From: a virus
Lineage: Duplodnaviria > Heunggongvirae > Uroviricota > Caudoviricetes
Length of the DNA: 64,000 nucleotides
IMG/VR virus record: IMGVR_UViG_2703718815_000003
Reading direction: 5' to 3' (one strand)
This document shows, in pieces, positions 57,748 through 57,780 of the stretch (positions within the stretch are counted from its first letter, which is position 1; each line of letters starts with the position of its first letter). The position numbers and the translations under genes were made by a program. The notes under the pieces were generated by a model. It saw only the letters and a list, made by a program, of their open reading frames with translations. It was not told the DNA's origin and made no database searches.

Positions 57748-57780
57748 AATGATTCCATACATAGTAGGTATGGAATCATT
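57748..57780. promoter_or_regulatory. lox/dif-like site: perfect 13-bp inverted repeat with 7-bp spacer
   Basis: AATGATTCCATAC-ATAGTAG-GTATGGAATCATT about 100 bp upstream of recombinase start. Confidence 0.5.

Follow-up and report, generated by a model that had tools for sequence, protein, structure and literature searches.

The question raised by this locus is what a perfect inverted repeat lying next to a tyrosine recombinase gene is for, and why single copies of its arm recur elsewhere in the same element. The window (the whole stretch of 64,000 nucleotides that was analysed) was 99.4% identical in the region around the repeat to CP099286.1, a 110-kb circular, non-mobilizable E. coli plasmid; the same region showed about 97% identity to phage Cyrano (pLF82) and kinship with Salmonella phage SSU5. 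From this identity and kinship, the window is an SSU5-like E. coli phage-plasmid. A preliminary description had reported a perfect inverted repeat about 100 bp upstream of the recombinase gene, and this observation was confirmed: the palindrome AATGATTCCATAC-ATAGTAG-GTATGGAATCATT occupies positions 57748-57780, with two perfect 13-bp inverted arms around a 7-bp spacer, and begins 98 bp upstream of the recombinase ATG. The full site is nearly a 33-bp palindrome, having 16-nt arms that are 94% complementary and 1 nt between them. It was listed by a repeat search of the region alone, while a search over the whole window left it unlisted. The coordinates of the features are collected in Table 1.

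Table 1. Positions in the window of the palindrome, its neighbouring genes and signals, and the isolated half-sites
Feature	Position	Strand or direction	Remarks
Half-site GATGTATGGAATCATT in dnaE	51718-51733	minus	codons 84-89 (RCMESL)
HTH gene	56165-56551	rightward	
Tyrosine recombinase gene (int)	56546-57649	minus	367 aa
Candidate int promoter (TTGATC, 17 nt, TAATAT)	57695-57723	minus	putative, read from the sequence
Full core site, 13-7-13	57748-57780		proposed crossover site of the adjacent recombinase
Int-proximal arm AATGATTCCATAC	57748-57760	+	perfect reverse complement of 57768-57780; putative monomer binding site
Spacer ATAGTAG, 7 bp, A/T-rich	57761-57767	+	putative strand-exchange (overlap) region
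Int-distal arm GTATGGAATCATT	57768-57780	+	relatives most often lose homology at its outer edge
Terminator of the grx (glutaredoxin) operon	57857-57838		
tRNA cluster (Ser, Thr, Tyr, Asn)	59852-60398	minus	
Half-site in non-coding DNA	60590-60605	+	195 bp upstream of the minus-strand tRNA cluster
Half-site over the stop of a 71-codon ORF and the start of a 50-codon ORF	61602-61617	+	ORFs on the minus strand

Near the site, the genes point leftward and comprise dnaE, two CobS/CobT-like genes, a 70-codon ORF, the HTH gene (which points rightward) and the recombinase gene; next comes the palindrome, followed by the glutaredoxin-operon terminator, the four-tRNA cluster, small ORFs and a DNA ligase gene. 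The palindrome thus has the candidate int promoter, which begins 25 bp away, on one side and the grx-operon terminator on the other. This promoter was skipped by the promoter scan because its score was only 8/12. In an alignment of eight relatives sharing the recombinase and the promoter (A1), GATCAA and the −10 region did not vary, and GATCAA was retained in further lineages. As a separate observation in this neighbourhood, a sub-threshold match to the STnc100 sRNA family (41 bits, with a gathering score of 47) was found at 59916-60084, between tRNA-Ser and tRNA-Thr.

The spacer was 7 bp long in every homologous site examined, while its sequence differed between lineages. It has the quasi-symmetric form YTAnTAR, of weak asymmetry, and the copy in the window is broken only at the central base and at one outer pair. 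As a consequence of this quasi-symmetry, three substitutions or one flip interconvert the two orientations of TTAATAG. Both TTAATAG and its reverse complement CTATTAA were found relative to int, in close as well as in distant relatives. Examples of the two orientations are L013 versus L050, L110 versus L111 and L112, and cases among loci L115-L183. A near-symmetric spacer present in both orientations relative to int would be unusual for a site that imposes direction, and counts against reading the palindrome as a crossover site; for a resolution site, the orientation of the spacer relative to its flanks is irrelevant.

The same arrangement bears on the idea that the repeat acts as a nucleic-acid hairpin, be it a terminator, an RNA element or a cruciform. 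A single strand would fold at −11.1 kcal/mol (z = −6.1 against shuffles), and the position between the grx terminator and the int promoter would suit such a role. However, the stem is not followed by a T-run and matches no Rfam family, on which grounds a terminator or an RNA element was rejected. Furthermore, the arm sequence itself is conserved beyond what pairing requires and recurs as unpaired single copies, and a loop fixed at 7 nt with a varying sequence is the pattern of a recombinase spacer. A hairpin is therefore a highly improbable explanation of the repeat.

The linkage between the site and the recombinase was examined in viral and bacterial sequences. Scanning the viral contigs for the exact arms around any 7-bp spacer yielded 101 loci, and a recombinase homologue (59-100% identity) started about 45-130 bp from the site wherever the viral locus reached the neighbouring gene. 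The invariance of the arms among these 101 loci is circular, because the loci were chosen by their exact arms. In an independent test, homologues were found by protein alone, and the contigs of seven distant ones (44-60% identity) were taken, from Xenorhabdus, Providencia, Erwinia, Pantoea, Rahnella, Photorhabdus and Serratia. In all seven, the start codon was preceded, at a distance of 50-110 bp, by an inverted repeat around a 7-bp spacer; the repeat was perfect in six cases and imperfect in Photorhabdus. Moreover, the arms varied with the protein: arms GTATGGAATCA (type A) accompanied recombinases at least 57% identical to that of the window, while arms GTCTGGAGTCA (type B) accompanied those that were 45-52% identical. 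Both arms changed in concert, type-B sites reading (A/G)TGACTCCAGAC-N7-GTCTGGAGTCA(T/C) against ATGATTCCATAC-N7-GTATGGAATCAT in the window. The Photorhabdus site was mixed (TGACTCCAGAT-TTTATAG-GTCTGGAATCA), and Biostraticola also carries intermediate arms.

A scan of one genome per species, using a pattern that spans both arm types, returned 69 loci, of which 58 were in Enterobacterales. Among the latter, the recombinase gene started 38-149 bp from the site in 57 loci, the 58th being cut too near its end. The 11 matches outside Enterobacterales lacked the recombinase and had G+C-rich spacers, the chance estimate being about 9. Among the carriers were a plasmid-sized Yersinia pestis contig of 108 kb, the Pantoea plasmids pPANA1, pA and pC3_1, and replicons of 100-700 kb from Rahnella, Erwinia and Ewingella. 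In the Y. pestis contig (strain NCTC5923, L121), which we take to be pMT1, the recombinase is 86% identical and the arms are of type A; in the Pantoea plasmids (L138, L168 and L170), the arms are of type B and the recombinase is about 48-52% identical. The Erwinia, Pantoea and Rahnella loci, checked gene by gene, were devoid of phage genes, and the HTH gene was restricted to phage-plasmid loci (tblastn against the scanned loci). Since the pair occurs on plasmids and megaplasmids without phage genes or the HTH gene, the partnership appears to be one of site and recombinase; judged by these comparisons, the site travels with the recombinase and with nothing else, as would be expected of a recombinase and its own site. 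The gene-plus-site cassette is widespread on Enterobacterales plasmids. In the literature searched, no paper presented the arm sequences in such a context or described the site; the system is of an ordinary kind, but no description of this version was found.

The recombinase itself was matched by the Pfam family Phage_integrase, with Phage_int_M (the central domain) below its cut-off. It consists of a core-binding and a catalytic domain, the arm-binding domain being absent, and the arm-binding domain PF13356 was confined to homologues less than 35% identical. In an alignment of 50 homologues, R185, R284 and Y316 were invariant, and K211 and H307 were nearly so. In NCBIfam, the protein matched just a CP4-57-type integrase model, and that weakly (positions 137-393 of 413), and phmmer against PDB sequences gave no match for the recombinase at E up to 0.01. 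The AlphaFold model (pLDDT 86, pTM 0.77) has a short, helical N-terminus, and its best Foldseek match was lambda Int bound to core DNA (TM about 0.6), followed by Tn1549 Int, XerA/XerH and IntI, with Cre at just E = 0.06-0.2. By sequence and predicted fold, the enzyme is a lambda/P4-like core without the arm-binding module, outside the Cre and Xer families.

Among the known systems, the inverted arms, the constant 7-bp spacer, the nearby recombinase with its catalytic residues and the covariation of arms and recombinase are the features of lox-, FRT- and rox-type sites, whose arms measure about 11-14 bp and whose asymmetric spacers measure 6-8 bp. In particular, the locus resembles Cre/loxP, which resolves multimers of phage P1, in its single simple site with perfect 13-bp inverted arms and a short asymmetric spacer, in the adjoining tyrosine recombinase and in being hosted by a phage-plasmid; accessory arm-type sites are not needed in either, and the same multimer-resolution role is proposed here. 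However, the spacer is 7 bp long instead of the 8 bp of loxP (13-8-13) and the recombinase is not Cre-like, Cre having ranked below lambda Int, Tn1549 Int, Xer and IntI in the Foldseek search, which leaves the pair outside the family of Cre, Dre and VCre. In structure and profile, the core-binding and catalytic domains were matched best by lambda Int (COC') and the P4/CP4-57-type integrases, and the lambda att overlap region is 7 bp long, equal to the spacer here. In contrast to these systems, the N-terminal arm-binding domain and the arm-type sites are missing, the arms are perfect and not degenerate, and the element was never found integrated (5,426 E. coli genomes); the site does not have the make-up of a lambda/P4-type attP. 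With XerCD/dif, cer and psi, the locus shares its proposed function, namely dimer resolution of a replicon at a short inverted-repeat site, but the recombinase is encoded by the element and is not the host XerC/XerD, the layout is 13-7-13 versus 11-6/8-11, and the arms are unrelated to dif, so that the site lies outside the Xer/dif group (cer and psi included). The preliminary description had proposed a core site for a Cre/Xer-type recombinase. Its lox-like crossover reading is backed by the covariation of the arms, by the joint travel of site and gene, and by homology breakpoints at the arm edge (see below), whereas the assignment of the enzyme to the Cre/Xer type did not hold.

The recombinase gene was present in 252 of 5,426 complete E. 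coli genomes (about 4-5%), with a total of 256 copies, all of which were plasmid-borne and none chromosomal. The exact 34-bp site occurred in 206 E. coli genomes and in 180 PLSDB plasmids, always as one copy per genome or plasmid and never annotated. The plasmid-like replicon that had been suggested earlier was thus corroborated, the gene being exclusively plasmid-borne in these 5,426 genomes with one site per genome. The recombinase is the sole site-specific recombinase annotated on the near-identical complete plasmid, although a further one may be present there because the PLSDB gene table is incomplete. Moreover, even when up to 3 mismatches were allowed, neither the window nor the rest of the plasmid contained a dif-like site. 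Taken from the sequence comparisons, the palindrome is very probably a site that is cut and rejoined by the neighbouring tyrosine recombinase. That it is the crossover site of this recombinase, with replicon multimer resolution as its most likely job, is given a probability of roughly 0.7. Plasmid multimer resolution, by analogy with Cre/loxP in P1, would be the likeliest role because the element, of about 110 kb, is purely a plasmid, of low copy number, and has one simple site beside its only annotated recombinase. One recombinase monomer would bind each 13-bp arm, two sites would synapse, and the strands would be cleaved and would change partners over the 7-bp A/T-rich spacer, in the manner of other simple tyrosine-recombinase systems, by which replicon multimers would be turned back into monomers.

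As a side effect of such an activity, co-resident relatives may recombine at the palindrome, which would explain an accessory slot that starts exactly at the int-distal arm. In the alignment of the eight relatives, homology was full up to the last base of this arm and gone at the next base. When all the fetched loci were compared by BLAST with 16 kb of the window, 43 HSP ends fell at 57779-57786, the largest cluster, so the edge of the site is a hotspot of junctions, the one indirect sign that the recombinase may act on the site; many alignments of E. coli plasmids likewise ended at query positions 1235/1237, equivalent to 57780/57782 in the window. Furthermore, one relative (L075) matched the window at 75% identity on the recombinase side but at 90-93% on the far side, with the switch at 57781 and an identical spacer. 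Unrelated accessory DNA started exactly at the int-distal arm in at least six variants sharing the recombinase and the spacer. A sharp edge at the site and a diffuse edge elsewhere would fit one site-specific and one homologous crossover between co-resident relatives; an alternative of lesser weight would be slot replacements that have to spare a conserved element and in this way leave breakpoints at the arm edge. The variable slot lies just past the int-distal arm (57781-58130 in the window) and is syntenic in L002, L022, L033, L048, L060 and L075. Although unrelated, the flanks have in common a T-run at about 10 nt from the arm, with GAAAT or AAATTCTG after it.

The slot also invites the reading of the palindrome as an attP-like chromosomal integration site, or as an integron-like docking site for cassettes, with the adjoining variable DNA as cargo. 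An enzyme of the phage-integrase superfamily nearest to lambda/P4-type cores would be in keeping with this, as would the unrelated DNA beginning at the int-distal arm and the slot gene of Cyrano, which was expressed 723-fold above the prophage background (PMC9928086) and is driven by a promoter-like sequence of its own, located 85 bp from the site. However, an att site of that kind would be at odds with the exclusively plasmid-borne gene copies, with the absence of an arm-binding domain and of arm-type sites, and with arms that are perfect, unlike those of typical attP cores. Moreover, the variable DNA was not bounded by another full site in any locus, nothing resembling an attC partner was observed, and the combination of one sharp and one diffuse boundary fits a site-specific plus a homologous crossover. 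A chromosomal attP was rejected on the lack of any chromosomal copy in the 5,426 E. coli genomes, and integration or docking as a whole is quite unlikely.

The genuinely odd part of the locus is the trio of conserved isolated half-sites. Five exact copies of the 13-mer were found in the window, namely the two arms and those at 60593, 61605 and 51718 (minus strand), and the 16-mer GATGTATGGAATCATT with at most one mismatch gave 4 matches, against 0.01 expected from shuffles. Of the extra single copies reported in the preliminary description, the extended ones at 60590-60605 and 61602-61617 (GATGTATGGAATCATT(T)) were present, but the count is three, the copy in dnaE having been overlooked. There were no intermediate copies, as every other 15-mer match in the window has at least 3 mismatches, and the remaining 46 kb of the complete plasmid CP099286.1 contained no copy of the motif. 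All lineages of the GTATGGAATCA clade retained the three half-sites in the same positions, even where the recombinase was about 60% identical and the flanks had diverged. They were absent from about 45 type-B loci examined, including the Xenorhabdus and Providencia phage-plasmids.

Two of the three half-sites lie in coding sequence. The half-site region of dnaE was located through the protein alignment, without consulting the motif. It falls in a variable loop, where TGT ATG GAA TCA TT was identical in 38 of 38 loci (23 distinct sequences), while the neighbouring codons varied synonymously and the neighbouring residues varied; in the DnaE of type-B relatives, unrelated residues occupy this position. 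As to the copy at 61602, its overlap with the start of a small coupled ORF, described earlier, was found as reported: the ATG of the 50-codon ORF (61616-61614) overlaps the TGA of the upstream 71-codon ORF. A coding explanation for this copy had been left open, and it is now excluded as the sole cause, since the synonymous positions never vary. The start ATG ATT CCA TAC was the same in 25 of 26 distinct sequences (44-100% protein identity), the remaining one having a GTG start, while later codons of the ORF vary synonymously. Because synonymous positions are invariant while their neighbours vary, a coding explanation was rejected for both copies, and they are best read as DNA-level elements for which coding cannot be the sole cause. 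Within the recombinase gene, at 57032-57043, the peptide VWNQ is encoded by GTTTGGAATCAA, and in other lineages by GTATGGAATCAA, which is identical to the binding arm at 11 of 12 bases. This fourth copy of the motif inside int, seen in some lineages, was discounted because the conserved VWNQ peptide dictates 10 of the 12 bases.

In SSU5 (L107), the 70-codon ORF, the palindrome and the genes for the HTH protein and the recombinase are missing, while the three half-sites are retained at 15404, 19932 and 20955, one of them with a T-to-C change (GTACGGAATCAT). Such a pattern is consistent with a recent loss of the recombinase or with another protein binding to half-sites; since the half-sites have outlived both gene and palindrome in SSU5, their binding partner may be a different one.

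The isolated copies were also checked for several other roles. Those in dnaE and at 61602 are identical 20-bp inverted repeats 9.9 kb apart, and isolated copies of this kind resemble the one-arm sites of the Rci/sfx shufflon of R64, which consist of one conserved arm and a 7-bp spacer. However, the predicted inversion junction between these two copies was found in none of 194 matching plasmids, and the 7 bp beside the arm differ between copies in other lineages. No cluster of HSP ends fell on the isolated half-sites within the 16-kb region. The half-sites showed no rearrangements in these plasmids and loci; a shufflon-like inversion between the dnaE and 61602 copies was rejected on the absent junction, and a role as mosaic breakpoints was rejected as the HSP-end clusters lie elsewhere. 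A mirror orientation around the palindrome, of the KOPS or Ter-fork-trap kind, was also dismissed: three reliable copies were not significant, and the cumulative GC skew showed no switch nearby. Finally, neither an Rfam family nor a promoter-like sequence coincided with the half-sites.

Three strongly conserved half-sites count against a pure resolution site, which needs none, and we know of no conserved isolated half-sites of loxP elsewhere in P1. Taking known systems as a guide, our working guess is that they are sites for recombinase monomers with a regulatory or architectural role; most simply, each would be an extra binding site for a single monomer. A precedent is given by TnpI of Tn4430/Tn5401, whose binding motif occurs as an inverted crossover pair and in extra copies for regulation or transposase recruitment; unlike here, the extra motifs of the transposons lie in the resolution site or in the terminal repeats, whereas those of the window are 2.8-6 kb away and two of them are in coding sequence. 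It is possible, though on balance doubtful, that the recombinase has a second job through DNA-selected half-sites, as a regulator or architectural protein of the replication and early region, and that this set arose only in the SSU5-like phage-plasmids of the GTATGGAATCA clade. If this were true, plasmid resolution would be coupled to the control of phage replication genes.

Regulation could also be the main purpose of the palindrome itself. In phage P1, the C1 operators are dispersed asymmetric sites at the promoters of the regulated genes, and the palindrome may likewise be mainly a transcriptional operator, whose bound protein, be it the recombinase or some other factor, would control the int promoter and, through the half-sites, other genes. 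The occurrence of a 12-16-bp motif at four places under DNA-level selection, the location of the palindrome just upstream of the candidate int promoter and the retention of half-sites by SSU5 without the recombinase would all favour an operator, and so would the neighbouring HTH gene, whose homologue CYRAN_45 is expressed in the Cyrano lysogen (PMC9928086). However, the palindrome follows the recombinase into replicons without the HTH gene and phage genes, and the HTH gene has a perfect 14-bp palindrome of its own (GGTAAGCACTTACC); on these two grounds, an operator of the HTH regulator was rejected as the main reading. Furthermore, 13-bp arms with a 7-bp spacer are long for an HTH dimer, and the palindrome begins 25 bp past the −35 box. 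Two of the three half-sites are located in coding sequence, and the promoter scans gave no positive support for promoter roles of the half-sites and found no sigma-70-like promoter near 60590 or 61602. Moreover, regulation by the recombinase at these sites would be compatible with recombination at the palindrome. Altogether, an operator is unlikely to be what the palindrome mainly is.

The palindrome GGTAAGCACTTACC (56120-56133) precedes the HTH gene by 32 bp and may serve as an operator for this putative lysogeny repressor. Close to it are the half-site-like GGTAAG and CTTACC (55943-55948 and 56009-56014), and a copy of GGTAAGCACTTACC with one mismatch was found at 32947-32960. With up to 2 mismatches, 7 matches were obtained versus 1.2 expected.

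If the reading of the palindrome as the crossover site of the recombinase is confirmed, a function and a site would be provided for the "integrase", a persistent gene of SSU5-like phage-plasmids, and the beginning of the accessory-gene slot at one exact base pair would be explained. The type-A and type-B arms would then represent two natural recombinase/site pairs of the 13-7-13 layout, probably orthogonal and potentially useful for genome engineering. The half-sites within coding sequence, in turn, form a well-defined case in which the precedence of DNA-level selection over codon choice can be put to the test. As a minor observation on a relative, the Xenorhabdus phage-plasmid (L108) contains, at 14481-16802, a LAGLIDADG_3 domain within its CobS-like AAA_5 gene, which suggests an intein or a homing-endonuclease insertion.
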